From: Euglena gracilis
Taxonomy: Eukaryota
Reading direction: 5' to 3'
DNA length: 64,000 nt
NCBI GenBank assembly: GCA_039621445.1
Contig: CP154954.1
Location: forward strand, 11,071,229 to 11,135,228
Shown here: positions 1 through 61,094 of the stretch, piece by piece
Numbering within the stretch: position 1 is the first letter of the stretch
How the letters are laid out: every line of letters starts with the position of its first letter
Position numbers and translations under genes: made by a program
Notes under the pieces: model-generated
The model's database searches: none
Seen by the model: only the letters and a program-made list of their open reading frames with translations
What the model was told of the DNA's origin: nothing

Positions 1-1298
1 CAGGAACGGCTGTATCCTTCGTCTCTGCCCCGCGAGCGGAAGGGGAACGATCGGTTTCCCCGGCTCCCGCGGCGGCTTCCGTCTGTCCACCGGTAGGTGG
101 AGACCAGAAACTTCCTGAGGAGGAAGGTGAGAACGTGGAGGATATCCTCTACGCTGCTCTGCCTGCTCCGGCACAGCCTGGGCCAGACGGAGCACCCACA
201 GGGGATATACCTGTGGCTGCTACGCCTGTTCCAACGGCTGAGCCTCCAGCCGAGGTGACTGGTATGGTCGTCGAGGACAACCTCGAAGAACCTGCCAGTC
301 CCACAGCACGCACCTCATTAGGAGGCCGTGTGCTCGGCGCCGTAGTCACCGGCATTACTGCCGTGGCTGCTGCACTAACGCCACGACGTGGAGGCGTAGC
401 ATCAAGCTCCGCCGATGAGGTCGTGGACACGCCGGATGTCGGCGTTCCCTCACCCCCATCTCCGGCAGCAGTGCAACCACCATCACGGGATGAACCCCAG
501 CCGACAGAGCCAACTGTCGCACCAGCTACAGCGGAGGATCAACCTCCCGTAGCACCTGCGCCAGCGGTTGTGGATGATCAACCTCCTAGACCGGATGTCG
601 AAATGGAAGTGGAGGAGATACCCCCACGACCACCGACACCGCGCGAGGCCCCTGCCGTCCCGAGGACAATGGCAGAGTTTCTGGGAGTGCCAGCACCTGT
701 GGAAGCACCGATTCTGGTGACGACCACAGTGCCACGCCTCGTCGGACAGGATGAACCTGCTCGGCGACGGCCGGCTGAACAACCCCCGGAACATGTGCCG
801 ACCCCTCGCAGCGTCATGCGCAACCCAGCGGTCAGTACGCCCGCTTCGCCCAGACGGCAAGCTTCTACTCCGACACCACCGGCTCCTGATACCAGGAGCA
901 AGCCGCAGGCGTCTCCTCCTGACTCTGGGAGTGCGAAGCCGAAAGGAGGCAAACCGGGTGCTGCACCCTGTAAGCCCCCTGCCAAAGGCGGTGATGGGAA
1001 ACCACCACCGAAAGGTGGCGCTGGAGGTCAGACTGGCGGACAGCCGAAAGGCCCTACGATAATGCACGACTATTCGGCCGTTGCATCGTCCGGGTACGGC
1101 CAGAGCAAACCGAAAGGTAAGGCTCGTGGTCGACAGGCCCAGTCTTCCGCCGGATCGACGGATGAGGAAGAGGATGAACCTGCTTCACCTCCTGTGTCTG
1201 CGGATGCCCAGCTCTGGACTCAGGATATCCTGACCAGACTAGGCACCGTCGAAGAGAGGACGAAGAAACTGGCTGCTATTAGGCACCAGAAAGGGTCA
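1..1298 (+). pseudogene. Fragment of family-B accessory ORF3 (Pro/acidic low-complexity part), cut by the window start and an assembly gap
   Basis: ORF 135..1349 closely matches the minus-strand ORFs 61233..62195 and 58195..59415 (RTSLGGRVLGAVVTG, KPGAAPCKPPAK, HDYSAVASSGYG). Confidence 0.75.
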
Positions 1299-17926: not shown

Positions 17927-18597
17927 GGATGTTGCATTGAGTTTGGATGAGATTCATGCAAAATCGTGCACCCCCCCGCACTTTGCCCCTCAAAACCGTG
18001 TTTTCGGTGGTCAAAATGCAACTTCCAGCTCACAACGCGCTTTTCACACACCAACCGAAGCATCTTCGGATGCCCGCCATCCAACTCGCAATTTTGTGCA
18101 TCAAATTCGCGATTCGTTGGATGCCAATCCTTCCAAAAGCGCAGTACGCGCACCCCTACAAGCATCTTCGGATGCGCATGTCCTACAAGCATCCACGGAT
18201 GCACATGATCATGAACATGCCTAAAATCGCGATTACAATCGCCCGTTTATACCACAACTTAAGATTCCCCCCCCTACGGGTGAATCCTTGGACGAGGAAC
18301 CGGTTTTTACTACAAAAACCGCAAATCCTCAGGTTTTACAACAAGAAATTTGCGAATCTGGACTGATTCGCGGTATGAGCCATACCCCTACCCCGGGGAT
18401 TGGCCATGAAGCGCTAATGCGAATCACGGAATTTACCGCGATTCCTCGATTTGCGGGTGAACAACGGGATTCCTACTCCCCTGGTATGTTACCACACCCC
18501 GAATCGCGGAATCACGACCCTTTACAATCCGAATCGCGGAATCGCGAAACACAACCATATAATTCGCGAAACGGCGATGTACCAGATACCCATGGTA
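17927..18597 (+). pseudogene. Internal fragment of a family-B gag
   Basis: LIRGMSHTPTPGIGHE matches LVRGMSQHPTPGIG in 41083..42903(-) and the start of 44565-44790. Confidence 0.7.
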
Positions 18598-21500
18598 CCT
18601 GTCGAGGAGCGGGATTTTCCCTGCCCCTTTGACGGAGGTTTCGGCTGTGAGGTTTTCCCATAGCCGGATGAGTACGACGTGCGTGAATCCTTGTCCCGAG
18701 GTTGATCCCCGAGAAGAGGATGCAGCACTCTGGCCGCCAGCACCACTACCGCCTTTTGGTGGGGGCTGATCACCAGATTTCGGTGTGGGCTTGCAAGGGG
18801 CGGGGCCCGGCTTTGTTTTTGCCGGGGCCTTCGGACTTCCGGTTTCCGGAGTATTCGAGGGCCGCCGTTCGGCGTCGCGCTTGCTTGTCCAGGTGCGTGG
18901 TAACGCCTGGGACGGGGGTTTTTTCCCCGAAGCCGAACGTCGTTGACCTTCAGCAGGGGTTTCCCGAGCTGAGGGTCTTCCTGCACGTTCCTCCGCGGCA
19001 CCCGTGGATTTCCCAGGGGTAGCCGTGGGGGACAGTATGGGTGCAGGCTTGGCCGGCGCACTTCGCTCTGGTTGAGCCTGTGGCGGGGGCATGGACGACC
19101 GCTCGGCCTGTTTTTCAGGCGCCGGTGTCCGTGTGCCTTGATGCTTTGGTGCAGTGGCTGTGGACGTGCGCTGAGGTGCGGGTTCATCCCGTGCCTCGGA
19201 TGGCGCTACAGGTGTTGATACAGGTTCATCCTGTACCGGCCCGGTGGGTGTTGTTTCCACTACCATTGCTGTCTGTTCGTCTTCCGTCCGTGTTGCTTCC
19301 GACACTGGCGGTGGCGCCGCCGTTGGGGGAGGTTCATCCTCCACCATGGCTGTAGTGCTAGGTGTTTCTTCCATCTGCTGGGCAGTTTCCGCCGCAGCTG
19401 TGGAAGAGCTCGCCGCAGTGCCACGTGGAGTGACAACTGCGATCAGTGACCGCAAACCACCGAGTACGCGTCCGCCCAGCGAGGTGCGCCGTTCAGGTCC
19501 CTCACCTGAAGTGGGCTCCTCCGCTGGCTCCTCTGTCGACGGGGTTTCCCCGGAAACAGGGAGTTTGAGGCGTAATACCTCAGGCGTGTGAGGTACCGTC
19601 TCCGGCGGGTTTTCCCGCGGACGGGTCGGTACCCCTGTCGTACTCAGTGAGGTGGGTAAGGTTGGAACAGGTGACATTTCACCTGCCGGCGATCCTGGGC
19701 GCTGGGCAGTTTCTGCCACAGTGTCCAGCATCAGGACAGATGGGCTACGGGTTTCCCGTGCCGGAGGTTCCGCTGGCTGAGGTTCATCCTCGGCCATTGG
19801 GGCCGTCTCCTCCTCCTCATCCGCTTCCGGAGGGGATTCCTCTGTGTGTAGTTGTGCTGCAGTACGCGGGTCTTTTCCGCTCCTGTAGCACCCTTGTGCG
19901 TCTGACAGGCGGTAAAAGCTTATACTTTCACTCCTATCAGAGTTGGGGTATGGGGGCGGCCACGACGCTCTCGCCCAGCTTCCGGGTGGAAGTTGCGGCT
20001 CGTCGTCGTCGATCAGGCAGAGGTCTTCCCACTGCTGTTGATGCATGCTGTATTCTCCTGTGTCTTCCAGGAAAGCGGGCAGCGGCAACGCATAACGAGG
20101 TTCTTTCCCCTCGTGTGCCGCGAAAAACATCTGAAAATCTTCCCAGATCAGGATCTTCCCGAACTGGGTGTCCAGGTGCTCCTGGAGGCCGATTTCAGAC
20201 TCTTCCCAGTCCGGTCGCAAGTTCATCCTGCGTTGGTCTGGATCATTGGGTCTGACGTCCAACTCGGAGTATCTCCGAGGTAACCACCTTCTGTGGATAT
20301 TCACATCAGCGGTCATGTATTCCAGGAAATATATGTAAGCCTCCAGGACGTAGGTAATCCACGCCCTATGCCAGTATTGTTGTAGCAGAAATATTTTCTG
20401 CCGGTGCTGTTTCAGCACCTTTCGGTCTTGCGTTCCGATATTAGGATTCCGGCACTGATGCAGGAGGAATCTACTGGTCGGCTGGCTGCCGGCATTCTCA
20501 GCAGTCGGAGGCGGTTTTCCGCGTTCTCCGAAACCCCAGAAGTCAACAATGTGTACTTCTTTGCAAAACTGGCATTCCAGTTTGTACCGCTGGGGGTACG
20601 CGAGGTCGACGTCCAGTACCTTGAACAGCGTGCCATGCATGCTGTCCAAGTATAACTGCAGATTGCAGGTGAACATTACCGCGGCCTGCGCCTGGAGTTT
20701 CTCCGGCAGGGGGTAATACTTCCACTGTATTCCCAGTGCTCCAACGGAATACAGGTGCATGAGGATTTCCTTCAGCTGTGCGACGAATGTTCGTCGTCTT
20801 CACAAGTATTCATACAATCGATATACGTCAGACCGTTTCGGTCGGTAAAAATGCCGAAATTAGGGCAGGGGTATCCCAACCAGAACCACAGCTCCCAGAA
20901 ACCGGACATCCGGTCCAGGACAACTTCACTCGAATGAGGGTATCCCTCAAAAGCGTGAAGTTCGGAACTGTAGAAAAAACGTTTGCAGTGATCGCTCATA
21001 CGATTCTGCACCACTTCGAGCGCCGCATCCGGTGGTCGGTGGATCACGTTGCCCGCTTTCGTGAACTTTTGGCGATCTTCGGCGATTTTCGGCCAGATCT
21101 CCTCAAGTTACTTGAAGACCGAGGCAACGTCATTGTCCTTCGTTTTCGAATGATCGGCGGCTTTTCCGCCTTTTCCTGCTGGGGGTCCGGCAGATTTTCC
21201 GCCTTTGCCTGGAGATGGCCAAGCGGCTTTTCCGCCTTTGCCAGGTGGGGCTTTTCCACCTTTCTCCTGGCCTTTTCCCTTTCCCTTACCATTGCCTTTA
21301 CCTTTACCCTTACCCTTTGTGTTAGACAGCCATTCGAATGTTGCCCAGTAATCCCAGTATTCTGGGTCTTCTATTGTAAACACAGGGTAAGTCACGGTTT
21401 CTGTGCTGGGCGTTCGAGCAAATTCCTGCTCAGCGTCACCACGGTTCGAGTAAACCGGCGCGACCGGGGGTGGTCGGGTTTCCCGACGTGCTCGTCGCTG

Positions 21501-22779
21501 GCGGAGCTTCCTCCTCAGCGTCGACGTGCATCGCCGCAGGCGGATTTTCCGACCTCTGCGAGCGGCGCTGTGGCTGCGGCGTCGGATTTTCCGGGCCGCG
21601 GTCACGCTTGCCGGCGGCAGAGCTCGTGGGTCGTGCTGATGTCGCTTCCGCCACAGCAACTTCCTGCTGTCGTGCTGGTTGACTTGATCGTGATGGAGCT
21701 GGGACTCCTGTGAGAGCCGACACTACAGCATCATACTGCTGGCGCTCTTCTCTCGTCATTTCCGCCCGGGCAGGTTATCCCTGGCCAGCGGAAACAGGGG
21801 GGCGACGTGCGATTTGTCGTTGGATCGTCACAGCATATTCCTACTGTTGACGCTCCTCCTCGGACTCGAACGGCCGGCCAGTCCACGGGTTAACGGGTTC
21901 ATCCCGAACCTGAGGGACTGGCACCGCACGACGCGCTGCCGCGGCTTCCCGCGGATGAGCGCTTCGGGCGGTGTCAGACGTCGGGGGAGGGTTTCCCCCC
22001 ACAGGACGTCGTGGCACAGGGTCAGGTATGGTTGGGTGGGGTTGAGGTGGATACACGTACTGATCCTGGGGCATTGGTGCCTCCTGGGGGTAATCCCCAG
22101 GGACGGCGTACTGAGGTACATGCTCCTGCGCAGGGTAATCCCGCCGGGGCATGAGCTCAGGGGATCGAAAAATACTTTCTTTCACGCGTGGGTGTTCACT
22201 CCGGACAGGTGCTTCCACTGTCCTTTCCTCGGGTAATCCGTGGGAGTGAGCGCGAAAGTGTGCGGTGTAAGTGCCAACTGGTGGTACCTGCCGTGCTACA
22301 TGTGGCGGGACTTCCACGCCCAGGTCACGCATGGTAATGTTTGCCGCGAATCCCGACGTGTCCGGGTCGGTGTAATACACCAAACCAGCCATCGTCGCCT
22401 GGGCGCACATACACCACAGGGATGGAGTGGTATTCGCTATGGTCAAAATTTTACGCCAGTGATCATCCCACAATGCCTGGGTGAGGTGGTCTGGTGCCGG
22501 GTTTGCGCTCATACGCATAACCAGGTTCATCGTCTCCGCCGTGCGGTGGATCATCACACCCGCATACGGTGGGAGGCGACGAGAGCCTGATGGCTGAGAT
22601 GGCCGCGCTTCCGCGGACATCCGCGTCATCCTGCTACTGCTGCTTGCTTCAGGGTTTCCCTGAGCCGCAGTCCGTGCAGGTGGCTGCGTACCGTATCGGT
22701 ACGCATACTGGTCAGTTTGATGGTGAGTGGTGGGGTGGTAAGGCGGGCCTCCGCCTGACTCCCTTCCACCGGGCAGCAT
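18598..22779 (-). pseudogene. Family B accessory ORF3 (unknown function), copy 1, fragmented
   Basis: ORFs 21841-22779, 21108-21659, 20772-21047 and 18433-20760 are homologous to 51700-55920 and 57670-64000. Confidence 0.75.
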
Positions 22780-22951
22780 GATACCCCCAGAGGTCGGTAC
22801 GGTTGGATGGTTGTGTTGTTGGTTGTAAGTTGGTAAGGGTATCCGCTTGAGTATTATTTGCTAAAAAGTCTGCGGAAAGAAAGAATGATAAGAATCAATT
22901 ATAAAAAGAAGATAAAACAACATGGGTTTCCCATGCGGTCTCAAAAACTTG

Positions 22952-25189
22952 TCATGGAAACATCAATGTTATGCTTCTTGTTCCACAGCTTCCAATCCTG
23001 CTGGACATACCCAACAAAACTGGTCGTTGGCTCCAAGTGTCCTCCTCGGGCCCATACCCTTTCCAGCGGACCTTCCAAAGGCGCATACCTTTGTCGATTT
23101 TGTTATCGATAATTATATCGACTACAAAGTCGTCCGTCTCAGGTAATCTGGAACGGGGTTTGAAGTGCAAACACGGGATGGGTTTCCCATCCGGTGGCGA
23201 CAGGTATGGCCTGAAGTCGTCCATATGAACGCCCTTAACACCATTCGGTAATGCGACCTTGTAACGCCTGCTGGTACCTAGTCTTTCTAGGATTTCACAG
23301 GGGCCGAGCCAGAGGAGGTCCAGCTTGGAAGACTGCATGCGAGTACGGCTATTCCGTACCCACACGCGGTCACCGGGACCATACACAGGTGACTTGAAAT
23401 TCTGCAAAAACGATTTCCGTTTAGTTCCTTGAACTTCAGTGACTCGCTTCTGGACTGCAGAACGTAGATTTTCTACTTCCGCAAACCAGGTCTCGCAACT
23501 GACACTCGTTCGGGCGGGTCTCTTCGAAGGGACATCCCCTATGGCCGGAGGGTCCCGTCCGAAAACTAATTTATAGGGGGAGTGAGGCAAAACCAACCCT
23601 GGTAAGGTATTGATATAAAACAAAGACCATGGTGGCACTGATATCCAGTTGCTGCACGAGTCAGCCAGTGAAAGGCGAAGCATATTCACGACGGATTTGA
23701 CGGCTGCCTCGGCTCTACCACTGCCTTTGGGTCGGTATACAATGGAAAAATGTTGCTCGATTCCGAGTAAACCGCACAAAGTGGTGAAAAACCTTGAAGA
23801 AATCAAATGGTCTTGATCACTCACGATTTCATTCAGTAAACCCATTAAGCAAATACATCTCTCCTAAAATATAACCGCCAAATTTTGAGCAGTCAACCCT
23901 GACTTCTGGCATGGAATGGCTACAATGTACCCACTCAGCCTGCAGACGACAACAAAAACGTAATCGTAAATTTTTTCGTCCGTTCCTTTGCACAGTTCTA
24001 ATTCCGGAAAATCCATGCAGAGGGATGTAAAAATGTCAGGGGGTACGGGGAAAAAATCCATCGTACCAGGGGGGGTACCTCTGCGGGGTTTTACCGCTTG
24101 ACAAATTTGACACCGTTGCGCTATTCGCAAACAGCGTGAGTAAAGCTCTTTCTCGCGCAGGGTTGTGCAATACCTGCGGCCCACCAACGAAAGAAGTTTG
24201 GGGGCCCAAGGGTGACCGTGGTTGTGATAGCACAAAATAACGTCATCAACCAGGTCCTGGGGGATACAATATTTGTAACCCGATTCATTGCGAAAAACCA
24301 ACCGTAAATGTGAAAGAGTGTAATTCTCCAGCACTTCGCCACTACGAAGTCTGGTGACTATGGTGTCATACACAGTATCACGACTATAATCCCATTCGCG
24401 AAAGAACAGTGGGGAAGGGGACTCTGTGCGTGTAATACGCCGGGGTCCGAACGTGCTTCCACGTCGGCGCCTCCCGCGCACTGGTGCGACCAGGAGTAGT
24501 TGTGAAACGGGAAAAGAATCCAAAAGATTATCCGCAGCGTCGTTTCGACGTGCGTATTCGTCAGCTTCCTGACTTCCATGAAAAGTCGCGTGTCCCTCAT
24601 CCGGGTTCCCAGGGTAATACCAAGGGGCCCGACTGAGCGGATCCGCTACTTTTTGTGTGTGACCAGGGGTATAAATAACTACAAGGTTGAATTGACTCAA
24701 GAACTCATACCATCTGCATCGCCTTCCGACCGATGACATGGCCTTGTTCAAATCCTCGGTGTACCAGTGTTGGGGATTCTCATGGTCGGTCTTGACGAGG
24801 ATCTGGACGAGGCTGCTGGGAACCCAGCTTCGGAATTTCTGGAGTATAAGCACGACTGCGTAGGTTTCCTTCTCTCGTATAGTCCACTTGACTTGATCTT
24901 TACCGTCGTCGCCCTGTAGCTTTCTGCTGAAGAAAGCCACAGGCCGGAGTTCATTCGCCGCGTTTTGCTGGCTAAGAACTCCGCCAACAGCGTAATCGCT
25001 GCTGTCGACTTCCAACACGTATGGTTTGCACGGGTCCGCGATTTCGAGGACAACATTCTCCAAAAGCAAAACCTTGATTTTCTCAAGGGCCTCGCGCATG
25101 TGGTCATCCCAAATGACTTTGGTGTTGTGATCAGCCCGGTTTTTGAGCTGTTTGGGGAGGGGCACCGCGATTTTTGCGAAGTCCTTCAT
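22952..25189 (-). pseudogene. pol: Family B RNase H, integrase and chromodomain
   Basis: LEVDSSDYAVGG, EKETYA, TDH, ADPLSR; HNHGH...CQIC; LCMDF, VSDQD, GRAE; WLGP; WKVRWKGYGPEEDTW. Confidence 0.9.
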
Positions 25190-26080
25190 ATATCGCGTAA
25201 TATTAAGCTAATCCCAAAAATCCTTTGATGTGTGTAATCGTTTTGATTACCTCAGGGGTCCATTTCCTGATGGCTTCGAGTTTACTCTGAGCGGCTTTCC
25301 GCTGTCAATTGCTGAGAATGTGACCGCAAAATTTAATAAGTATCCGAAACAAATGCATTTTCGCGCCTTCGCGAAAAGCACATGTTTTTGAAAAGCAGTT
25401 AATACCGCGCAAACATGGTGGACGTGTGTGACGAGAATGAGAATATCTTCGCTCGATTTTGCGGATGGTGGCGGTGTTCCCACCAGCACATCATCAATAT
25501 ACACAATGGCAAACGGTAAATCGCGTAGAACCCATTGTATCATGCGTTGAAACATGGCTGGGCAATTCTTAACACCCATGGGGAGCACCGTCCATTGGTA
25601 CACACCCTTGGATGTCACGAATGCCGTGTATGGTTAGGAGTCAGGGTGCAAGTGCATTTGGTGAAAACCGTCCTCCAGATCGAAAATTGACCACAACCGG
25701 TTTTCCGATTGTTTGGTGATCAAATCCTCGATCAGGGGGAGCGGGAAGGGATCATCCCTTGTCTGGGAGTTCAGGCACCGGTAATCCAGCACCAGTCTCC
25801 ATTTCATCTGACCTGAGGGGTCTGGAGGTTTAGGAACAACAAATGCCTGGGATGCCCACTCGCTTTTCGAGGGTACGATCCACTTGCGCCGGATAAGCTT
25901 CTCAATCATGTCATTGAGAGCTTGTTCGCGTTCTCCCGAACAACGAAAGACTTTCCGGTGCATCGGTTTAGCTCCTTCCTTAAGCTCGGTCTTACAAACA
26001 CCGAACGGACCGCGTATCGCGGGGTCGATGTCGCACGCGTATACTGGATTTTCCAGCACACCGTGAAATTCGCGGGTGAT
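25190..26080 (-). pseudogene. pol: Family B reverse transcriptase
   Basis: WRLVLDYRCLN, IFDLEDGFHQ, LPMGVKNCP, VYIDDVLV; interrupted by stops and frameshifts. Confidence 0.92.
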
Positions 26081-26199
26081 CCGCGAACAGAATTCGGCTG
26101 CCTTGGGATGCTGCCCTGCACTCTCAATGACTGCGGAAACCACCAGGGTATCCCTGGGGCTACCGAGCTTCCTCGGCACCGCGAATTCGGACATTTCGA

Positions 26200-26600
26200 A
26201 TGCATCGAAGAAACATACGCGAAAAATGATTTCTTGCAAGGGTGGTAATATTTTACCACAAAAATCTTCAAAAATTGGTACATTAGTGGGTAAATCCCAC
26301 CAATGAAAACATACACACGATAGTTGGGTGAACCATTCCGCTTCCGGAATGATGGGTATGAGAATAACTCCACGGGCTTCATCCCGCAGAGTTTTGTCAA
26401 CCGCACATTCGATAAGTTTTGAGGGAGGGTGCATCCATAACACCGTATCACCCCAAAATTTATCAAATGCGTTGGAGTGTTGTGACCAATGACGTGGCAA
26501 ACGGGCATGTGCATTGGATGAAAAGGCATCGATTTCCAATGCCAAATCAAATGAATCAGCCAATGTCGCGATTTTGGAAAACCGTTGTTCCAAAATGCGA
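26200..26600 (-). pseudogene. Dam-like N6-adenine MTase domain between PR and RT (catalytic motif reads HPPS)
   Basis: LEIDAFSS...NAFDKFW...LWMHPPS...GVILIP...EWF is colinear with the NPPF/NPPW domains at 59732-60427 and 32810-33193. Confidence 0.8.
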
Positions 26601-27466
26601 TATTGACCAAAATTTAAAGCATTCCATACGCGTTTCGCGTATACATGCACCCGATTCCCGGGTTGGGGTGACGAAACACAATGAATGGATCCACAAACAT
26701 GCGGGCAGTCTTCCACTTCCTCAAGGGTTAACCCAGGGGAGTTTGGACAGGTTGGGGTTTTCTCCATTCCGCATCAAATCCGTACCAAGTTTGATTGCGA
26801 TTAAAATTAGGAATGACGCTTTTCGCGTTTCTAAACGAGGCTAATCCGCGTTGTTGGAGTGCTCGGTGTATCTCCGCGCATTGCGGGCTACAACCAAGTG
26901 TATCATGGCGTGTGTATTCCGTCTTCGGAATTGTGATTAGTGTCGGATTTTGAACTAGACATCCACAATCGAAATCCGATTGGGTGGATATTCTCCTGCA
27001 GTGCACACATTGGAAGGACGTGTGTTGGTGTGACAGGTGTGCGTGTAAGTGGGTGTCGATGGCATTAGCCGGTGAGTCTTGTACAGGTGTTCCTGGGTTC
27101 GGCACAATTGGTGGGAATCGGCGTGGTGGTGTAGCTGGGCGACTACTCGACACCGTGATCCCTGCAGGCCTTTGGGCTTTCGTCTTGTAACCCAGTGGAA
27201 CGGTGTGGGTACCGCTACCCGCTTGCCCTACCTCATTTGGAACGCATGTAGGTGTGTCATTGGGTAGGAGTGAGGCTTTCTACGTAGCCCGAGTGTGGAA
27301 AACGGTTGTTGGTGTGGTGGATAACGGTGTTGCCACTGTGTGTAACGGTGTTGGAAAACTGGTGGTCATCATAGTGGATGTCAACGGTGATGGTGGTTTG
27401 GGTGGCATTGCAGTGTTGGGTGCTGTGCGCAAACCGTGGGAGTCGTAATCCACAACCAATCGGTAC

Positions 27467-27956
27467 TGTTCACCGGCCCCACCCCCTGTGCGCCGCCGGT
27501 CGCCCCTGCGACCGGCGAGTCCCGGTGGGCCGAGGGCCCGGGGGGGTTCTCGCCGTCGTGGATAACCACCGACAGCAGGGGGGTGGGTGTTTCCGGGGTG
27601 GGGCCTGCGCTTTCTCGGGAAATTGGTGGGCTCAAGCCAACCCCCATTTTTTCACCCAGGTGATTTCCCCAACCCCAGCCGGCGCGTAGGATCGTTTTTT
27701 CAAAGTTTTCCGAAATTTTAGTGAAAAACGATCCTACGCGCCGGCTGGGGTTGGGGAAATCACCTGGGTGAAAAAATGGGGGTTGGCTTGAGCCCACCAA
27801 TTCCCCGAGAAAGCGCAGGCCCCACCCCGGAAACACCCACCCCCCTGCTGTCGGTGGTTATCCACGACGGCGAGAACCCCCCCGGGCCCTCGGCCCACCG
27901 GGACTCGCCGGTCGCAGGGGCGACCGGCGGCGCACAGGGGGTGGGGCCGGTGAACA
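27467..27956. repeat. ~230-bp-arm inverted repeat made of two head-to-head copies of the LTR 3' (U5) end
   Basis: 27467-~27698 is the reverse complement of ~27724-27956, with one mismatch seen and a short spacer. Confidence 0.9.
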
Positions 27957-31918: not shown

Positions 31919-32185
31919 GATAGCCGGGGTGGACCGTTGGGGGCGGGAGCCGCCCCGGGCTCGCATACCCAGCCCCACACAAAGACATACACAACTCCCA
32001 GGTGGCAAGAAAAATCTCGTGTGAGTGAAAACACGATGAAAAATCTGCCATCCAAGGAGACTTCTGTGCAAGGTGTGTCCAATGTGTCGGGTGCGTGCGT
32101 GCGTGACGTGCAAATCTGTGACTCGGCCCAAATCTGTAAAAAATCAGATCTCGTAAGAGATCGTGCACAGCCTTCCGTAAAGAAA

Positions 32186-32773: not shown

Positions 32774-32809
32774 GTGTTGGAACGAAAAAGCGGATATCGT
32801 AGGGAGGAT

Positions 32810-39300: not shown

Positions 39301-39304
39301 GTAC

Positions 39305-51699: not shown

Positions 51700-54600
51700 C
51701 TGTGGCGGAGGCGGCGTTCTGCAGGCGATTTTGGAGCAGGTTTGGCAGTTGGTGCGGTGGTATGTGGTACGTCAGGAGCTGTTGGTACCACCCGTTCAGG
51801 TGTGTGTACCACTACGGGTGTTGTCACCACTTCGGGTGTTTGGACGTCAGAAGCAGAACCAGCAGCGTCTGCTGTCAGTGCTGTGGTGGAAGCCGTAGCT
51901 TCTTGTGTGGGTTCTTCGCCAAGTCCCGTGTCACGGGGACTTCGCGTTGAAGAGGAAGACCTCGATCGCACCATTGCAACCATCGAGGCTACGCCACTCC
52001 GGACGCTTCCGAGGACACGTTCTGCAGCGCGTCCGACTTGTGGTGGTATGAGTATGAAGTCGTCTGGATCTGGATATCCACGGCTGTGAATACCGAGTGG
52101 GTATTCTCGACGTATTTGTTCACGCTCTGCACGTAGTGCTTCCATTTCTTCGTCAGTGATTGCTCGGTCACCTTCCGCACGTGCGGAGGTGGGTGGAAGC
52201 GTGTCTGACGAAGGCACTGCGGCCATTGTAGAGTCTACAGACACTTCGGCCATCGTAGGTGCTGTAGGCTCTTCGGCCACTGGAAGTTCTGTAAGTGCGT
52301 TGGGTTCCACGTCTGGTAATGGTGTTTGTGGTCTTGTCTGAGCAGGCATTGTAGCTGGCGTTTCGGCCCTTAGAGCATGTTGTACGTCGGCATCTGCGGG
52401 TTCAGACTCCACGGATGCGGAGGAGACGGAGCGTGTACTGTGTTCATTGTCTGTCCCTTCCTCCATTTCCTCATCGCTGGATGACGCAGAAGAGGAAACG
52501 GACGAAGAGTCTTAAGAGTGTACGGGAGTGTGTTCCACAGACATTGTAGGTGTAGGTGGAGGTTGTGTCAAACGTTCTTCCGAACGTTTGGTTGCAGGAT
52601 TCGCTGCTGCTTTGGCTGTTGTCGTTGTACATGATGCAGCCGTTGGAGGTTGTTCAACTGTAGACTGCGCTGCCTCGGACTCCGCCGGCTGTGGTTCAGG
52701 GAGTTTTATACGTGGTCGCAGACGGAAGTTTTGCCATCCGACAAATTTGTTTCCTCCCGATCCGCGAGGAAGCCAGTCCAGTATTGGGATGGCCAACCCA
52801 TCCTTATTTGTACGTTTGCCCTTGAAAAATGGGGCAAAGTCCTCTCTTCGGAGGGTTTCGCCAAACAGGCGTTTGATATACTTCCGTTTTCCGTCTTCGT
52901 CCCATGCAGGTCGAAGAGGGAGGTATTCTTGTGGGAGTGGTTGTTTCGGGTTGAATAAATTGTAGATTTCCAGAGCATAGCATACCCGTGCTCTCCATTG
53001 GAACGTCTGCATGTGCAGAAGCATTTGTCGGTGGTTTCGTCTGGCGTATCCGATTTCCCTGACTTAGAGGGGATTGTGGCAAATGTGTCCGAGTAGTCTT
53101 CGTTGTAGTTGGGCTTCCGCCAATTCTCGTTGGTGGGGCTGCACCCTGGTGCGTTTGGGCGGTCGGTTGTCCGACCGCGTACCCCAAAGCCCCAGAAGTC
53201 CACGGGGAACTTGTGGAGGCAGTGGGTGCACCAAACGACGAATCTTTGTGGGTAAGTCAGGTCGATTCCGACCACTTGGAAGTGGGGGCCATAGTGTTCG
53301 TTGAAGAAAATTTGGTAGTTGTAACAGAACATTTCGTGTGTCACCAGTTGTATTTCCTTTGCAAGTGGGAATACTTCCCATTGTATGCCGTGTGGTCCGA
53401 TTTCGCGGATGTTGTCGAACATTGTCTTCAGTGTGTCAAGGGATGACTCCCATCCGTATTGTAGTTTTGGATGTGGCAAGTAGTGTGCCTTGCTCGCGGG
53501 CATTGGAAATGAAACGAAGTTCAAGCAATGGAATCCGAGCCAGAAAAGTAGTTGCCAGAAACCTGGCAATTTGTCGATGCAATCCTGGCTTTCGTAACAC
53601 GAAATTGTACCATCGAAGAAAAAGCCACGGGCTTTTTCCTTGTAGAGTTTGACCATGTGGTGATGTACTTCAGGAGCTACAAACCAAGGGTGTTGTTCCT
53701 CATAGTACTGGTGCAAAATTTTATCACATCCGTCTGAGATGCAGAACAGATGGTCAACCATGAATTGTACGTCCAGGTCGTAACGCGGTTGTGAGCCTTC
53801 GCTCTTTCCTTTGCCTTTCTGGCCTTTCTGTCCTTTTGCGGCTTCGCGCTCTTGTTCATTCCAACGGTATGCACCATCTTTTCGGAATGCTAGTGTTTTT
53901 CTTCACATTGTAACGGTTACACCAGCGGTGTAATGTCCAGCAATGTCATGGGATGGTTTGTCTGGATACATTTGGTGATATATTTCGTAAAAAGATCGTT
54001 GTACGTTGGGCGGGATCGGCAGTCATCGCTTTCCTGACGATCACGTTGCACCTGCACGCTTTGTGGCTCGTCGTCCAAACGACGACGTTGTGTATCTGGC
54101 GTTGGACGTGTTTGTGGTGGTGTTGCAAACTCCGGTCCACGCGGACGTTTGCGCGCGTCAACGTTGTATGGTTTTGCTGGGGCGGTCAAATGTTGTAGAG
54201 CTTCCTTGTAGGTGGCGCGTTGTGCCGGCGACTCAAACCTGGGTTGACCCGAGAAAGGGTGTCCCGGTTCAACAGGTGGTTGTGTCTGTCCAGCCGAGGC
54301 CGGTTGTGAAGGTGTCGTAACAGGAGGTGCTCGAACAGGAATTTGTAGTTTTTGCGGGTGCTTTTGTACGTGCCGACCGCGCGGCTTGAGCAGGGGGTCC
54401 TGTTCTTTGTATAGGTACAGGTTGGTTTGAACCTGCTGCTGATGCGGCAGGCTGAATAGATGTTGATTGTGCAGTCGAAACTGCTTGTACAGGCTTTGTT
54501 TGTGGTGCCGGAGTAGGTTGAGCTACCAGCGGCACAAGGTGCGACACCGAAGCGAGTTGTTCCATTGGACCAGGTTGATGTGGTGGTGCATTCACACGCA

Positions 54601-56539
54601 AAACTTCGGGTAGTGCCCAGGTGGGTATACCGAAAGTTTTGGAGTTTGGACCAATGCCATCCATTATCACTCCCTTTACGTTGATGGCTCCCAAATGGGA
54701 TCCAAGTTCGTAAATTTTGTCAAGGGGAAGGTATTGTTCGCCTTTGTTTGTGTAAGCGAAATCCAGAGATTGTGGCACTCGTTCATAGTGAATATTGTCC
54801 TCTACGGGACGCAGGGGGTTTTCTCCGACAACCCGTATCGCTGTCGGTTCCAGCAGCGGTACGGAGGGGGTTGTCGGTGGTTGTGGTTGAGATTGTACAG
54901 ATGGTTGAGTTTGTACGGGTTGTGGTGGTTGGGGTGCTTGAGGTGGTTCGTCTGTTTCCATGGTATACTGCGGCTCAGGGTCTGCCGTTGAATACTCGTC
55001 GTAAGGCTCTTCGGCCATGTCGTCGGTATAATTTTCATCGTATGGCTCTTCGGCCTCCATAGCGTACTGTGATGGCATACTAGCCTCCCAGTTCCGTGCA
55101 GGCGGCATGCGTGGGGGAGAGGAAAAACGTTGTTGTGGTAAGTATACTGGTTCTTGCATTTGGACTTCACCCATCTCACTTTCTGTGAGTCCAGGAGTAT
55201 AGCGGCGCACGTGTTCCACGTAAGCACCCACAGGATGCACTCCGCGGAGCACAGGCGGGACCAGGACTCCCAGATCCCGGAGAGTTACATTGTCTGGAAA
55301 TACGGATTCTCCGGGTTGGAAGAAGATTCTACCTGCTATCGTACTCTGGGACCACATGTCTCAGGTGGCGATAGGTTTGTTGGCGATTGCAAGCAGTTGT
55401 CGGCAGTACGAATCCCACATCACTCGGATGAAGGGATCCGGTCTGTCCTCTGTGCACATGCGCAGAGCGTTACGAATTGTATCTGTTGATGCCGTTGTCA
55501 GTTCGCCCATGTACTTGGGGAACCGAGGCATCACAAGACCGCCTCAAAAGCAGCGCGTTGGCTACTGCTACTTGCCAGATCGTATCTCCTTGGGGGCCGC
55601 GGTTGCGGCACCGCAAACTGTTCATAGGCAGATTCCGTTTGTTGTGGAACCATTGTTTGAGATTGTAAGCCACCAAGTGTAGTTTGTTCTGGAGCAACAT
55701 GCAGAACCGCATGTTGAGTCACAGGGGAATTTGCCTCTACGGGCCTTGCTGCCGAAGCAGCTTGTACATGCCGAACGGGGACTTGCCCTCCACGAGGGAG
55801 TGCAAGTCCTCGTCCTCCCGAAGGAGGTTGTGGGTGAGGGGGTCCTCCCGTACGAGGTTGTCCAGGGGGAACATACGGTTGGGAGGATGGGGGACCAGGT
55901 CCCTTTCCTCCTGCGTCCATCTTAAAAAAGAGCAGATAGTAGCAAGTGCTGAGCTGTGTGGAAACAGAGAAATAAGGCATTGTACGGTAACATTGGACGC
56001 ATGCGAGCAAATGTGTGCACACACAAAATATTTGTATGTTTGCACTAATTGTAAAATCAAAATTGTAGCACCAAGTGTAAAAATGTATCGCTCAAAACCA
56101 TAGTCATTTGACGAAAAGTCCTTCGGTAGGGACAAAATGGTTTGGCATCCGCCCGTTGTTTATTTTGGCAGCCTCCCATTATACGTTTTGTCGAAAGTCC
56201 ACGCTATGGACAACTCTTGGACATCTTTGTACATCCTCTCTTAGAAGGTATTTACAGAAATGTCTATGTTATTTCGTTTGTTCCATAATTACCAGTCCTG
56301 TTGGATATAACCAACAAAACTAGTTGCAGGTTCCCAATTGTCCTTTTCGGGACCATAGCCTTTCCACCTCACCTTCCAGTAATGTATACCCCTGTCTACT
56401 TTGTGGTTGAGGTATTTCAACGACAACCTCATCTGTTTCAGGCAGTTTTAACCGTGGTTTGAAGTGAAAGGCAGGGTATTGCTTTACCGTTTGGTGGAGT
56501 CCGGTATGGTTTGAAGTCATCCGTGTGCACATCCTCGAG
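51700..56539 (-). pseudogene. 3' half of a family-B element: integrase tail/chromodomain remnant (~56300-56539) followed by divergent ORF3 copy 2 (~55920-51700)
   Basis: LPETDEVVVE plus frameshifted WKGYGPEKDNWEP; then WSQSTIAGRIFF..TLRDLGV, GFWQLLFWLG and YPQR..CTHC..VDFWGFG. Confidence 0.78.
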
Positions 56540-56864
56540 TGTACGTCTGATTCCAAATTTCCCTTTCCCAATTCCAAAAAAGCCTTCGCTTTCGCCTTGG
56601 CGCACCTACTTGGGAACTGAAAATCAGAGTAATAGAAAATCCCTTTTTCCCACTTCCCAAGAAGCAAAGCACAGAGCAATGCAGGGAGGACGGACTGGAT
56701 ATCCAAGTCCGGTCCAGAGAAAAGGAAGGACAAAGGGAAAAACAGAATACCACCTGTGGAGAGAGAAGGGGCACCCATTAGGAGATCCTAATAGGATCTG
56801 CTTCCATCCTAACTTCCTCACCGGAAGGGGACAGAAGCATACGCCTGGTATACATCCTCCTCCC
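56540..56864 (-). repeat. Family B 3' LTR (56540-56854) with PPT GGGAGGAGGA (56855-56864)
   Basis: Reverse complement of 46600-46912; TG...CA termini. Confidence 0.87.
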
Positions 56865-59427
56865 AGGGCTATGCCCGATTTCCCCTTTGGACCAGGCATT
56901 CTGGCCACAGGGATTTCGGACACAGACCTGGTCTGTGGGAGGTGCACCCTGGCGCATCCACAGGGGCCCTTTCCGTCGCACAGGGGTCAACTCAAAGGGG
57001 GGGGGAAAGGAGGGGACCCAAAAAGCCCAAAACGCGCAAAATGGTTTCACCTATTCTGCGGTGGCTTATGGGTATATAGTATATTATAGCCCACTGGGGA
57101 AAATGGGGCTGGCAGGTTTCCTTGCCAAGCAAACCCATCCACCCAGTTTAGGTGTGCCCAAGGCACTTGGGGTTGGGTCCATGGGCGTTCCAGGAAAACC
57201 CATGGGGAGGGTGTGGAAGGAGGGGGCCTCTGACCAGTCAAACCTGGGCAGGGCGAATGGCCAGTCAAACCTGACCACGTAAAAGGAAATCCTACTATAC
57301 AAAACCAACTGCCGGCGACAGCATTTGGGGGGAGAGTAGAGAGGAGTGGGGGGTTGGCTTAGGCCAGAAAAGTTGAGCTGTCTGGCAGCCTTATGGCCTC
57401 AAACGGGCCGAGAAGAAAATAAAGGGAAAGGAAAGAGGCCGTCAGCCCTGTGCGCTGCGTGTCGCACGCCCGCGAGAGGGGAGAGGGGAGAGGGGTGTGC
57501 ATGCATGCGCACGGAATCCTGCACATGGCAGCATCCCGGTGGGAACTTACTAGCGGCGAATACCGCAAAGGGTCTTCGAAGGGGTTGTTCGGGCGAATAC
57601 CCAAAAAGGGTGTCAGGCGAATACCTGACGAGGGTTCTGAAAGCCGCCGCATTGGCGCTCACAGACACCTCACCTGCCTTTATCGGCTGGACGTTCGCGC
57701 ACCTCACGCCAGTAGTCGTGTTGGGGGTCCCCTAATGGGTCCTCAACCAACTCCAGTTGGCGTGGGGAACACGGCATAGCTGATTCACTCCGAATGGTGT
57801 TGAGCTCCGGATCGTTGGCATCAAAGGAAGGGGTCTCCCAGTCCTTGATCCAATTATCCGGCAGCTTCTCCCTGGTACGTTCAGCATGATGCTGAAGGTA
57901 CCGTTGGAGCTGCTCCCAGAAAATTGTGGGCAGCATCACCGGCCAGATGATGTAATTCATCTGGGGGTGATTCGCAGGCACCTGCGGGGGCATCCCCGGG
58001 GTCTGCTTGAAGTTGATGTCATGTATCCACCTCGCTGTCCGAGCTCTTGCGGTATGGGGCCGTAATACAGCCGCCAACCAACCTCTGAAGTCCACCAAAT
58101 CGTGTTCTTCAGGAGGCCACAGTGGCAAGGCGTATCTTCCATGCTGACGCTTGGAGAACAGGGGGTAAACCTGTGTCTCCCAGTCCCCATCGGTTCAGAG
58201 GTAAGGCATTCTTACCTTGGCGTGTTCCTCGACGGCGAGGCGCATTGCCCCAGCGTCGATCTGGAACTCAGGGGCCATTCCCGTGTGGCGGTAGCTTTCT
58301 ACCTTGCGGAAGTCGGAGTGCTTCAGGCGGCCTTCCACCTGTTCGTACTCCTTCTTCCACTTCTCCATTGTCTCCCAGTGGTGGAGGACAATGGTGGTGA
58401 CTGCTCCATCAGCAGTCTGCACGAACCTGGCCCCTATACAGTTGATGCTCAAGGCAGGGATATCCCTGTCGTGAGCATTCTCACTGTAGGAGTAGTTCAA
58501 GCTGTGCTTCGAGGCGTTCAGGCACTCGCCACATACGAGCGCCACACAGTTCGGCACATATGCCCTGTGATGGAACCACGAGGATTGCACCTGCCGCTTG
58601 CACACATGCACAAGCGGTTGGTTGTGCCGCACATGGTGGCACACGGTGCACGTCCAGGCAAAGGACGTGCCGTGCTGGAAATCCAACACGCAGTCCTCAC
58701 CAAAGTACTGTGCCAGTACTCTGGGTGAGCGCCTATTCCAGAATGTCCAGGTATGTTCCGGGACATAGTGGAAAGGTTCTCCTCGGACGAAGAGGGGCTG
58801 AATCCATCGATTCAGTGACCCTTTCTGGTGCCTAATAGCAGCCAGTTTCTTCGTCCTCTCTTCCACGGTGCCTAGTCTGGTCAGGATATCCTGAGTCCAG
58901 AGCTGGGCATCCGCAGACACAGGAAGTGAAGCAGGTTCATCCTGCTCCTCATCCGTCGATCCGGCGGAAGACTGGGCCTGTCGACCACGAGCCTTACCTT
59001 TCGGTTTGCTCTGGCCGTACCCGGACGATGCAACGGCCGAATAGTCGTGCATTGTCGTAGGGCCTTTCGGCTGTCCGCCAGTCTGACCTCCAGCGCCACC
59101 TTTCGGTGGTGGTTTCCCATCACCGCCTTTGGCAGGGGGCTTACAGGGTGCAGCACCCAGTTTGCCTCCTTTCGGCTTCGCACTCCCGGAATCAGGAGGC
59201 GATGCCTGCGGCTTACTCCTGGTATCAGGAGCCGATGGTGCCGGAGTAGACGCTTGCCGTCTGGGCGAAGCGGGCATGATGGCCGCTGCGTCACGCGTGA
59301 CGCCCCGAGGAGTGGGCACTCGTTCCTGGGGTTGTTCAGTCTGCCGCCGCCGAGCAGGTTCATCCCGTCCGACGGGGCGTGGCACTGTGGTCGTTACCGG
59401 AATCGGTGCTTCCACAGGTGCTGATAC

Positions 59428-61094
59428 TGTGGGCGGCGCCAGGTTTAAAATTTAAAAACCCAAAATTGAATTAGGAGGCGCCTATCCTAATTACAAAATT
59501 TCTGTTTTTGCAGCTGCAACTGTCCTGAACTCTTTGACTCAAGGAAGGCCTGAGCGCCAGATGAAGATTTCAAGTCTTGGTTTGTGCCATGCTGAAGGAA
59601 AGTGAGTGCTGGAAAGGAAAAGTTTTCAAGTTTGACCACCAGTGGGTACAAGGAGACACTCAGAAAACACAAAGAGTTCAATTGTTGCTCAAGGCCTGGA
59701 GGCCAAAAGTCAGCCAGTTTGGCCAGAAGAAATGGACATTTCAGAAAGTGTCAAGTCAGTGATTGTCAATGATGAAAAAATCTGGGAAGATCAATGCTGC
59801 AGAAAACTGGGCTGGAAATCTGAGCTGTATGCAGTAAAATTTCAGTATGTTGTTGAAATCATTGACAGATTGGGATTGAAGACCCCCAACATTGATGCAT
59901 TCAGTTTGGAAGAAAGCAAGAGATTCAAATGCTGGTGGGGACCTGGGTCACAATTTGTGGAAGATTCCTTCACAGTGAAGTGGACACATTCCATTGTTGG
60001 ATTGTTGTGGGCAAATCCCCCCTTCAGCCTCATTGCAAATGTCATCCGCAAGCTGAAGAAGGATCATGGTCATGCGGTGTTGGTTGTCCCAAAGTGGGTT
60101 ACTGCCCCCTGGTGGGAAGATCTTCAAGACATTGTTGTCAGAATGCTGGAGTATCCTTGTGCCACGCCGTTGTTTGAGTTGGTTGGGGCAGGGTTCACAG
60201 TCCCCCCCACAAAATGGCCAGTACAAGTGGCATTTGTCTGTGGAACGATAAGTCAATGTTTCAAATTGGCAAAAGTTCCCAATTCAATTTCAAGTTCAGC
60301 AAAAAGGAGAGTGAGGAGGCAAAAGATGAAAGGAGGGTCCTCCCCACAAGTGCCCCTTAGGCTCCAGGTCGGCACAGGGGACAGCCCAAATTTCAGTGAT
60401 TCAAGTGGTGAAGTCTCTTTGCAATGATTGTGTGTTCAATCTGAGCCCCCTCCTTGCAAAGTGGGCTTTGAGTTTGTGCTGGCCAGTGGCCCAGGCCCAG
60501 GGCCCAGGTCGGAGAACCGCTACAAGGGGGCCTACCCACAGGCCCTGGGACTCCCCCTGGCAGCCCCCCACTGGCCCCCTCATCCCAGGAGTGCCCTGGG
60601 GAAGGTTGGGAGGGGGACCAACCTTTCCCAGGGTGCCCCAAGGGCTCTGGGGTGGGCTGGTGGCCCTGTGGCCCCCCTACTTGTGCTGGACATTTTTGGA
60701 CTAAATCCCTGTCAGCTGTATTATATCCCTGACTCAGCGTTCAAAAATTTAAAAAAAACAAATTTCAGCCGCCCCCCCCAAAAAAGGCCAATTTTGGCGC
60801 CGCAAAAAATTGCCGAAGGCAGTGGGCACGAAGTGTCCAGAGAGGGGTGTGTGGGCGGCGCCAGGTTTAAAATTTAAAAACCCAAAATTGAATTGGGAGG
60901 CGCCTATCCTAATTACAAAATTTCTGTTTTTGCAGCTGAAACTGTCCTGAACTCTTTGACTCAAGGAAGGCCTGAGCGCCAGATGAAGATTTCAAGTCTT
61001 GGATTGTGCTATGCTGAAGGAAAGTGGGTGCTGCTGGAAAGGAAAAGTTTTCAAGTTTGACCCCCAGTGGGTACAAGGAGACACTCAGAAAACA
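59428..61094 (+). mobile_element. TRIM-like mini LTR element (1667 bp), TSD ATAC
   Basis: Direct repeats 59428-59669 and 60850-61094 (TGT...ACA); ATAC at 59424-59427 and 61095-61098; PPT AGAGAGGGG at 60839-60847. The empty site is visible in the paralogue near 680-700. Confidence 0.9.
59732..60427 (+). CDS. Stand-alone Dam-like N6-adenine DNA methyltransferase (231 aa from the first ATG; frame open from 59642)
   Basis: IDAFS...DSFTVKW...LWANPPFSLI..VIRKL...AVLVVPKW..APWW, followed by a basic NLS-like KRRVRRQKMK. Confidence 0.85.
   Translation: MDISESVKSVIVNDEKIWEDQCCRKLGWKSELYAVKFQYVVEIIDRLGLKTPNIDAFSLEESKRFKCWWGPGSQFVEDSFTVKWTHSIVGLLWANPPFSLIANVIRKLKKDHGHAVLVVPKWVTAPWWEDLQDIVVRMLEYPCATPLFELVGAGFTVPPTKWPVQVAFVCGTISQCFKLAKVPNSISSSAKRRVRRQKMKGGSSPQVPLRLQVGTGDSPNFSDSSGEVSLQ

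Follow-up and report, generated by a model that had tools for sequence, protein, structure and literature searches.

The 64,000-nucleotide stretch of the Euglena gracilis genome analysed here, referred to below as the window (assembly GCA_039621445.1, contig CP154954.1, positions 11,071,229 to 11,135,228 of the forward strand), carries copies of a long terminal repeat (LTR) retrotransposon family, family B, in which a further open reading frame (ORF), ORF3, follows the chromodomain at the end of pol. Four copies of ORF3 lie in the window, numbered 1 to 4, and all four are pseudogenes. Comparison of the copies indicates that ORF3 is very probably a real and conserved accessory gene of these elements.

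Results

ORF3 lies between pol and the 3' LTR

Copy 1 had been singled out in a preliminary description, made from the letters alone, as a large sense ORF after the chromodomain at 18598-22779. Both pol and ORF3 of this copy are carried on the minus strand, and 'sense' is to be read relative to this minus-strand pol. The pol frame stops at about 22952 and the next ATG-initiated frame begins at 22779, the end coordinate of that interval; from this ATG about 4.1 kb of coding sequence extend to a cut-off at about 18.62-18.69 kb. A third coding region in the orientation of pol is therefore present as described, but it is not an intact ORF. The reading path runs through 22860-21841 (frame 0), 21722-20772 (frame 2) and 20799-18433 (frame 0), with two frameshifts (near 21.4 kb and at about 20790) and at least four in-frame stops (21841-21843, 21775-21777, 21436-21438 and 21108-21110), and the 3' end is truncated near 18620-18690 at the junction with an antisense gag fragment. 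With its stops, frameshifts and 3' truncation, copy 1 of ORF3 is dead.

The pol of copy 1 can be read in a single frame (26773-22952) with four internal in-frame stops and no frameshift. Pfam matches in this frame comprise RVT_1 (E 8.6e-12), RT_RNaseH_2 (E 3.8e-23) and Chromo (E 1.2e-6; 28.8 bits, above the cut-off of 25.1), together with matches under the respective cut-offs to Integrase_H2C2 (E 4.7e-5; 23.9 against 25.5 bits), SH3_Tf2-1 (E 1.7e-6; 28.5 against 30 bits) and Dam (E 1.8e-4; 21.7 against 28.1 bits). A region with the motif (M/N)PP(W/S) is readable in the Dam-like translation, and no match to the integrase core rve was reported by Pfam in this pol. The order reverse transcriptase (RT), RNase H and integrase, with a C-terminal chromodomain, is that of chromovirus-type Ty3/gypsy elements. 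Judged by its sequence, the carrier of ORF3 is a chromodomain-bearing Ty3/gypsy LTR retrotransposon family with a predicted Dam-like adenine methyltransferase.

The 5' half of the family (gag, protease, linker and Dam-like region) was read from the plus-strand fragment 47224-49284 and the minus-strand fragment 43948-39311. Its gag combines a coiled coil with a CCHC knuckle (Pfam zf-CCHC, E 1.6e-5), and its protease carries LVDTG or LIDTG. Assembled from these fragments, the full order is gag, protease, Dam-like, RT, RNase H, integrase, chromodomain, ORF3 and 3' LTR.

The placement of ORF3 agrees between the copies. In both lineages whose pol end lies inside the window (copies 1 and 2) ORF3 directly follows the chromodomain, its ATG lying about 170 nucleotides (copy 1) and about 370 nucleotides (copy 2) past the end of pol; in copy 2 a remnant of integrase and chromodomain at 56560-56307 stands immediately upstream. 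At the other side, the last ORF3 codon of copy 3 lies at 57673 and an LTR end (56854-56538) is found farther downstream, where the match to its plus-strand counterpart at 46600-46914 (91%) stops abruptly. This counterpart is followed by a TGG... sequence resembling a primer-binding site and, about 420 nucleotides on, by a gag start codon, and beyond the copy-3 LTR end lies the integrase remnant of copy 2. The copy-3 junction thus looks like the 3' LTR end of an element inserted into an older one. None of the window copies has both LTRs; this one LTR end is common to the two places. The arrangement earlier proposed, with ORF3 after pol at two loci and before the 3' LTR at a third, is borne out.

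Within copy 3 the C-terminal Cys/His-rich domain occupies 59451-58198 and continues at 58194-57673 beyond one in-frame stop. Inside the same copy lies a nested insert of about 1.7 kb (59428-61094, minus strand), bounded on either side by a direct repeat of 245 bp (59428-59669 and 60850-61094, 96% identity). Within the insert a Dam-like fragment on the plus strand (59837-60214) shows 26% identity to the Dam region of copy 1 (E 2.3e-7). Copy 4 ends at the beginning of its C-terminal domain, in an assembly gap (a run of N at about 1298-1315).

Conservation of ORF3 between lineages

To compare the copies we searched the 64-kb window by tblastn with the ORF3 pieces of copy 1, and performed a self-blastn at word size 11. 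At the DNA level no similarity among copies 1, 2 and 3 was detected within the window by this self-blastn. At the protein level several regions align clearly. The N-terminal conserved region, island A, is 35% identical between copies 1 and 2 (55525-55034) over 174 amino acids (E 1.4e-22), and a further comparison of the two gave up to 38% identity (E 2e-14). Part 1 of the central region, the core, matches copy 3 (63105-62875) at 44% (E 3.3e-20) and copy 2 (53629-53507) at 37% (E 7.6e-7), and core part 2 matches copy 3 (62853-62207) at 37-42% (E 1.1e-37) and copy 2 (53431-53129) at 37% (E 2.7e-18). Later islands of copy 1 are recovered in copy 3 (62018-61371; 27%, E 1.4e-6), residues 427-682 of the copy-1 piece D in copy 4 (34%, E 7e-6), and an additional helical island is shared by copies 1 and 2 (27%, E 2e-8). 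Copies 2 and 3 are 24% identical over 136 amino acids (E 7e-9).

Overall, protein identity among the three lineages is 24-44% with E values of 1e-6 to 1e-37. The conserved stretches are islands only, and the linkers between them cannot be aligned. For comparison, copies 1 and 2 are 47-62% identical in the chromodomain and the C-terminus of integrase. The claim that ORF3 is conserved across three divergent family-B lineages is upheld by these data. Since protein similarity persists where DNA similarity has been lost, selection on the protein probably maintained the islands as the lineages moved apart.

Copies 3 and 4 are closer relatives. Along their DNA alignment (59423-58817, minus strand, with 691-1297, plus strand) about 30 differences fall into the first 240 nucleotides and five into the last 367. 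Recombination, gene conversion or strong local constraint could account for this uneven divergence.

Predicted anatomy of the ORF3 protein

The translations reveal a protein in which short conserved blocks alternate with low-complexity sequence. A Pro/Gly/Tyr-rich N-terminus is followed by island A (about 110 amino acids), a Lys-Gly tract, the core (about 300-450 amino acids), a linker, a second basic tract and a C-terminal part. Within the core the motifs FW..F..G(Y/F/W)...N, G(I/V)QW, YPQR, CxxC, (D/N)FWG..RG and (C/H)xxC succeed one another and conserved helices follow. The linker behind the core is long, acidic and rich in Pro, Thr and Ala; it contains SLGGRVLG...TPRG and passes into the Lys/Gly/Pro tract. 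The C-terminal part, of about 450 amino acids, holds a Cys/His-rich module with several CxxC pairs. Copies 2 and 3, and the predicted protein P0003 from outside the window, likewise have Lys-Gly tracts ahead of the core, and the CxxC ... (C/H)xxC arrangement is kept in copies 1 and 2 as well as in the outside sequences P0001, P0003 and P0004. The Cys/His modules of core and C-terminal part are putative zinc-binding modules. In copy 1 a 33-nucleotide tandem repeat (21157-21242) lies within the lysine-glycine tract.

All five motifs listed in the preliminary description can be read directly in the translations. That of island A reads WDDHWRKILTIAN ... NITMRDLGV in copy 1 and WDSYCRQLLAIAN ... 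NVTLRDLGV in copy 2. The aromatic motif of the core occurs in three forms, GFWELWFWLGYPCPN, GFWQLLFWLGFHCLN and GFWELWFWLGYPCQN, and GxxG(I/V)QW as GALGIQW, GPHGIQW and GPLGVQ. The YPQR block takes the forms YPQRY..CQFC..VDFWGFGERG and YPQRF..CTHC..VDFWGFGVRG, and the RVLG motif reads GGRVLGG...TPRG.

No single frame of about 1,800 amino acids is observed in the window, and the full length was pieced together from open frames that overlap between copies. The chain starts with 312 amino acids from the ATG to island A in copy 1, continues from the linker into the core in copy 3 (313 amino acids) and copy 2 (398 amino acids), from the core to the second basic tract in copy 1 (788 amino acids), and from the RVLG motif as far as the beginning of the C-terminal domain in copy 4 (448 amino acids) and copy 3 (418 amino acids); the last 174 codons are open past a single stop in copy 3. 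About 1,363 amino acids in copy 1 up to its break and about 467 beyond it in copy 3 add up to about 1,830, in fair agreement with an earlier estimate of the order of 2000. Full ORF3 would accordingly measure about 5.5 kb and encode about 1,800-1,900 amino acids.

Both visible N-termini begin with M and a similar Pro/Gly-rich hydrophilic sequence (MLPGGRESGGGPPYHP... in copy 1, MDAGGKGPGPPSS... in copy 2). By-eye inspection showed no signal peptide in either of them, and no conserved hydrophobic run of about 19 or more residues, as expected for a membrane anchor, in any ORF3 piece, in line with the earlier remark that neither a signal peptide nor a transmembrane anchor is obvious. In copies 3 and 4 the RVLG motif includes 17 consecutive uncharged residues, the best candidate for a membrane span; copies 1 and 2 have an arginine there.

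Searches for homologous proteins and folds

Pfam assigned no family to any of the four ORF3 pieces of copy 1 (E<=0.01) or to the eight further ORF3 pieces of the window (E<=1). Among these results there is no catalytic domain of the kind found in the GDSL lipase, DEDDy exonuclease or dUTPase types of ORF3. A search for homologous proteins with the copy-1 core (range 433-1379 amino acids) yielded 1,424 candidates, none of them at E<=0.001; with an alignment of the core (A2) as query the same search returned only P0002 and P0001, the latter being already included in A2. When the contiguous core of copy 2 was compared exhaustively by HMMER with 1.84 billion representative sequences, four proteins were found (E 1.2e-5 to 1.1e-4). 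These are unnamed and located on ENA or Logan contigs of 0.9-2.2 kb, and they carry the FW..F, GIQW, YPQ, CxxC, FWG and HxC motifs. For the C-terminal domain the word search had a single match, P0006 (EG_transcript_25142), which is 97% identical over 230 amino acids to this domain of copy 3 (59052-58363); the EG_transcript prefix occurs in publications on E. gracilis. Sequence searches of the PDB gave no match at E<=1, and scans for the core patterns in metagenomes (91 and 250 pattern matches) and in IMG/VR (32 pattern matches) gave no confirmed one.

The core is unbroken in no copy of the window, and an AlphaFold2 model was therefore calculated from alignment A2 with P0001 as first row. Its mean predicted local distance difference test (pLDDT) score is 57; residues 126-215, with the succession alpha-beta-beta-alpha-beta-beta-beta, reach 74-85, and the CxxC pair lies within the three-strand region. 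With this model (mean pLDDT 57) Foldseek found no match at E<=0.001 in the PDB or in BFVD. The wide VIA search gave a best Z of 4.8, in the range that is called common, and in the ESM Atlas the best score for the core was 0.77 (a glypican cluster, at chance level), with no usable match for the C-terminal domain. The model of the C-terminal domain has a pLDDT of 31. We make no claim of a novel fold because the fold evidence is too weak. Pfam, PDB sequence and Foldseek searches (PDB and BFVD, E<=0.001) yielded no match of ORF3 to a known Env or transposable element (TE) domain, a result that would have counted against the preliminary description, and no description of this ORF was found in the literature searched, supplements being outside its scope.

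Repeats, transcripts and a possible splice acceptor

Contigs of the run X4 contain 25,591 pieces that match the 10.1-kb stretch of pol and ORF3 at 90% identity or more, covering 30 of 30 bins. On average, ORF3 has about 0.4 times the word depth of pol, depth not being equal to copy number. From these pieces and their word depth it follows that the family is highly repeated and regularly includes ORF3. An extra T behind 20789, present in two X4 contigs (988 of 2,678 depth), unites core parts 1 and 2 in one frame. The X4 contigs also have different letters at two of the stop codons in the copy-1 pol (25636 A>G and 23865 T>A). Transitions prevail among the between-copy differences in X4 (C>T at 65, G>A at 60, A>G at 65 and T>C at 69 places), each class of transversion being found at 12-41 places.

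Stops in all frames separate pol from ORF3, which implies that ORF3 is not made by readthrough or a simple frameshift. Upstream of the ORF3 ATG a pyrimidine tract with an AG is found in both copies whose start is visible, about 90 nucleotides away in copy 1 and 0-40 nucleotides in copy 2 (ATG at about 55920), and between the AG and the start codon of copy 1 there is no other ATG. Similar tracts stand ahead of the gag ATG in both copies read. The tract and AG of copy 1 may represent a 3' splice or trans-splice acceptor. Euglenids trans-splice extensively. As stops block readthrough from pol and a pyrimidine tract with AG precedes the ATG, ORF3 could be translated from a separate spliced or spliced-leader trans-spliced subgenomic RNA; trans-splicing as its route of expression is a tentative and rather doubtful proposal. 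The presence of the C-terminal part of ORF3 in a transcriptome assembly (P0006) is the sole support for its expression. An Rfam search of the whole window gave no match.

Table 1. Coordinates of ORF3 copies and associated features in the window
Feature	Positions	Strand	Basis
pol of copy 1 (Dam-like, RT, RNase H, integrase, SH3-like, chromodomain)	22952..26773	-	Pfam, reading frames
Spacer between pol and ORF3, copy 1; pyrimidine-rich tract and AG at about 22871-22895	22780..22951	-	Sequence reading
ORF3 copy 1, N-terminal piece; Pro/Gly/Tyr-rich start MLPGGRESGGGPPYHP..., island A at about 22216-22578	21841..22779	-	Translation, similarity to copy 2
ORF3 copy 1, predicted disordered linker (frame 0, 21774-21436), then Lys-Gly-rich basic tract (frame 2)	21111..21774	-	Translation
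ORF3 copy 1, core part 1; aromatic motif GFWELWFWLGYPCPN, frame 2	20772..21107	-	tblastn to copies 2 and 3, alignment
ORF3 copy 1, core part 2 (GIQW, YPQR, CxxC, VDFWGFGERG, HQC, helical islands to ...SFYRLSDAQGC), frame 0	19845..20799	-	Translation, tblastn
ORF3 copy 1, acidic Pro/Thr/Ala-rich linker with SLGGRVLG...TPRG at 19420-19482, then second Lys/Gly/Pro basic tract	18691..19844	-	Translation
gag fragment, unrelated to ORF3, adjoining the broken end of copy 1	18225..18620	+	18380-18600 matches 44565-44785 at 93%
ORF3 copy 2 (ATG at about 55920; island A 55525-55034; core 53902-52709 and 53063-52515; tail to about 51700)	51700..56091	-	tblastn, translation
ORF3 copy 3, entering the window after island A (core 63720-61529, linker 62267-61054)	57673..64000	-	tblastn, translation
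3' LTR end of copy 3	56538..56854	-	91% match to plus-strand 46600-46914
ORF3 copy 4 (linker, RVLG motif, basic tract, start of C-terminal domain), 88-94% DNA identity to copy 3	3..1297	+	Self-blastn

Neighbouring elements

A second LTR element, family A, is present at 27724-39300 and 11318-17930 (both plus strand); the copies are 95-96% identical over about 5.9 kb, and the one at 11318 is cut off at 17930. Family A has an open ORF1 of 1,380 amino acids. Elsewhere along the element its C5 methyltransferase is recognised by Pfam as DNA_methylase (E 2.6e-5), its Dam domain scores above the cut-off (42.3 bits, E 8.3e-11), and RT, RNase H, an integrase core and a chromodomain (E 9e-10) are present. 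Its order at 27.7-39.3 kb is gag, C5 DNA methyltransferase (DNMT), Dam, protease, RT, RNase H, integrase and chromodomain, with no ORF3, and matches the architecture of the 'EpiLTR' described for E. gracilis in a recent preprint (10.64898/2026.05.21.726589). Tandem repeats of 78 nucleotides (three overlapping 94-nucleotide copies, 90-93% identity) occur in ORF1 at 28850-29099 (plus strand), and a proline-rich tandem repeat lies at 37811-38290 between the chromodomain and the 3' LTR. Next to its 5' edge, family A has its own opening stretch of roughly 265 bp repeated in inverted orientation (96%; 27463-27731 against 27692-28074, 11905-12278 and 39038-39304), and this palindromic junction adjoins the truncated 5' end of the family-B copy 1.

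Fragments of gag and protease resembling those of family B are found at 43948-39311 (minus strand), 44512-45954 (plus strand) and 47224-49284 (plus strand). In their gag a coiled coil, which matches baculovirus P10 below threshold (E 6.3e-6), occurs together with a CCHC knuckle and an Arg/Ser-rich tail; their protease has a D-T-G motif. Repeats of about 700 bp at 39311-40003, 45935-46565 and 47616-48321 were considered as LTRs and rejected, as they encode protease (LVDTG, LIDTG).

Discussion

We consider it rather probable that ORF3 is a genuine, lineage-specific third gene of this Ty3/gypsy family and a non-envelope accessory one. The earlier suggestion of a new accessory protein is supported by a third coding region after pol and by the lack of a match to an Env or TE domain in the searches above, but every copy in the window is a pseudogene, and the anti-silencing, targeting or transmission role suggested for the protein is speculative.

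Several observations weigh against a functional gene. All four copies in the window are broken by stops, frameshifts, truncations or insertions, and the full-length protein is a composite. The uneven DNA alignment of copies 3 and 4 gives no clean selection signal. The pyrimidine-AG signal is weak, and three RNA runs of about 1.9, 1.9 and 1.8 billion letters contain 29, 22 and 34 reads, respectively, on the 10.1 kb of pol and ORF3. Of the mapped RNA, 82-86% runs on into unlike sequence, and none of these reads shows a joint or a loose end where the acceptor is proposed. Read-through or pervasive transcription could be the origin of P0006. Both structure models are of low quality (pLDDT 57 for the core, 31 for the C-terminal domain), so that zinc binding and function are predicted from motifs. 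Expression of LTR elements in E. gracilis is described as low or undetectable in the preprint cited above (10.64898/2026.05.21.726589), which also notes extensive trans-splicing in euglenids, and the scant RNA reads agree with this description. The near-absence of reads neither supports nor excludes a subgenomic ORF3 RNA.

As to its product, ORF3 might encode a mostly disordered, zinc-binding protein that is intracellular and associated with nucleic acid or chromatin, with possible tasks in particle assembly or in the handling of host chromatin or silencing. Such a scaffold is favoured over an envelope, as secretion signals are lacking and the sequence combines Lys-Gly tracts with two Cys/His modules and disordered linkers; a role as intracellular scaffold or nucleic-acid-binding protein is nevertheless put forward with considerable doubt. 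Still more speculative, and in our estimate unlikely, is a functional euglenid-specific protein of about 1,850 amino acids, with domains of no known fold and a zinc-binding core shared with stand-alone proteins of uncultured eukaryotes, which would be made from a trans-spliced mRNA and act together with Dam and chromodomain on host chromatin or silencing. If this were true, such elements would be 'complex' retrotransposons, comparable to complex retroviruses.

Other explanations have to be weighed against a genuine third gene. ORF3 might be a passenger, that is, fragments of host or foreign genes which an ancestor captured once and which have been carried along without serving the element, the islands being remnants of captured domains. 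Its modular make-up of unrelated islands and low-complexity linkers does resemble accretion, the core also occurs in short stand-alone predicted proteins (P0001 with 332 and P0003 with 419 amino acids, on contigs of about 2 kb), and every copy seen is broken. However, islands that retain 24-44% identity with no DNA signal left, close to the 47-62% of integrase and chromodomain, are hard to explain without constraint during replication of the element; moreover, P0001 and P0003 may themselves be fragments of elements, and metagenome scans for their loci were empty. We regard a passenger origin as improbable. A similarly small likelihood is assigned to several separate genes (ORF3, ORF4 and so on), for instance one protein each for island A, the core and the C-terminal Cys/His region in place of one giant product. 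Island A and core share an unbroken frame in none of the copies, the core's relatives comprise just 330-420 amino acids and start with M, and P0006 begins with an M inside the region, as separate genes would predict. Yet the M of P0006 is probably just the start called on a transcript fragment, the open frames overlap along the chain (313 amino acids in copy 3, 788 in copy 1, 418 and 448 in copies 3 and 4), and no boundary of stop plus ATG is common to the lineages.

If ORF3 encoded an envelope-like or transmission protein made from spliced RNA, after the pattern of errantiviruses and retroviruses, this would fit its position between pol and 3' LTR and the acceptor-like signal ahead of the ATG, and both the GFWELWFWLGY motif and the 17-residue uncharged RVLG stretch of copies 3 and 4 could touch membranes. 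We consider this reading very unlikely, given that neither N-terminus has a signal peptide, that no conserved membrane span was seen by eye and that an arginine interrupts the RVLG stretch in copies 1 and 2. In addition, there was no Pfam match and no fold match in BFVD or the PDB at E<=0.001 (with only the core modelled, at mean pLDDT 57), and most of the protein is Pro-rich and acidic linker. Finally, much of the region is of low complexity and spurious long ORFs occur on both strands, as expected if the similarity were due to chance or composition in GC-rich DNA and no gene existed. Against this stand E values down to 1e-37 for islands that are not repetitive and bear specific aromatic and Cys motifs, and the recurrence of these motifs in sequences from other sources; judged by these similarities, an origin by chance or composition is already effectively refuted.

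How does a third gene of this kind compare with known systems? The env genes of errantiviruses and retroviruses and the env-like ORFs of the plant Athila/Tat elements lie 3' of pol and are expressed from subgenomic spliced RNA. ORF3 shares this position and the expected separate expression, whereas signal peptide, anchor and fusion-protein homology were not seen in ORF3 (reference sequences were not compared). Complex retroviruses have accessory genes and caulimoviruses the inclusion-body protein P6, lineage-specific intracellular extras of which some are largely disordered scaffolds. Their resemblance to ORF3 is an analogy only, with no relation in sequence or fold.

A close parallel in arrangement comes from LTR elements of bdelloid rotifers, for which non-env types of ORF3 between pol and 3' LTR are described (Rodriguez, Kenefick & Arkhipova 2017, PMC5408684). 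There, too, an ORF other than a canonical env extends the stretch from pol to 3' LTR in Ty3/gypsy-like elements and forms a module of whole lineages. According to that report the rotifer proteins show homology to GDSL esterases/lipases or DEDDy exonucleases or are env-like, while the Euglena ORF3 matches no family and is mostly disordered. With about 1,800-1,900 amino acids it also appears several times longer than the rotifer ORF3s. The Euglena DAM-LTR or 'EpiLTR' elements (Fernandez-Moreno et al., 10.64898/2026.05.21.726589) resemble the carrier in having Dam-like, RT, integrase and chromodomain regions, and a combination of C5-DNMT, Dam and chromodomain is described there for E. gracilis LTR elements. 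A large ORF after the chromodomain is not mentioned in those passages of its main text that were consulted. DNMT-bearing retrotransposons are known from Symbiodinium (PMC5890265); a dinoflagellate host was considered on that ground and rejected in view of the EG_transcript match and the Euglena architecture, which make E. gracilis or a close relative the likely host. Thus, LTR elements with an extra ORF between pol and 3' LTR, env or non-env, are already known; what is new here is the lineage of the host, the size, the absence of any recognisable domain and the combination with a Dam-like region and a chromodomain.

Extra genes in LTR retrotransposons, such as envelope, nuclease, lipase and methyltransferase, show how mobile elements gain abilities. 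Here an abundant family with a predicted adenine methyltransferase and a chromodomain spends about 5.5 kb more on a protein with no recognisable relative. If dead copies were all that exists, ORF3 would be an ordinary fossil of a lineage-specific accessory ORF. If intact copies and selection were found, it would provide retroelement biology with a new protein family, probably with new folds. It would also be a concrete case of a TE that uses the spliced leader for downstream genes in trans-splicing organisms, and a further gene for which work on the DAM-LTR elements would have to account.

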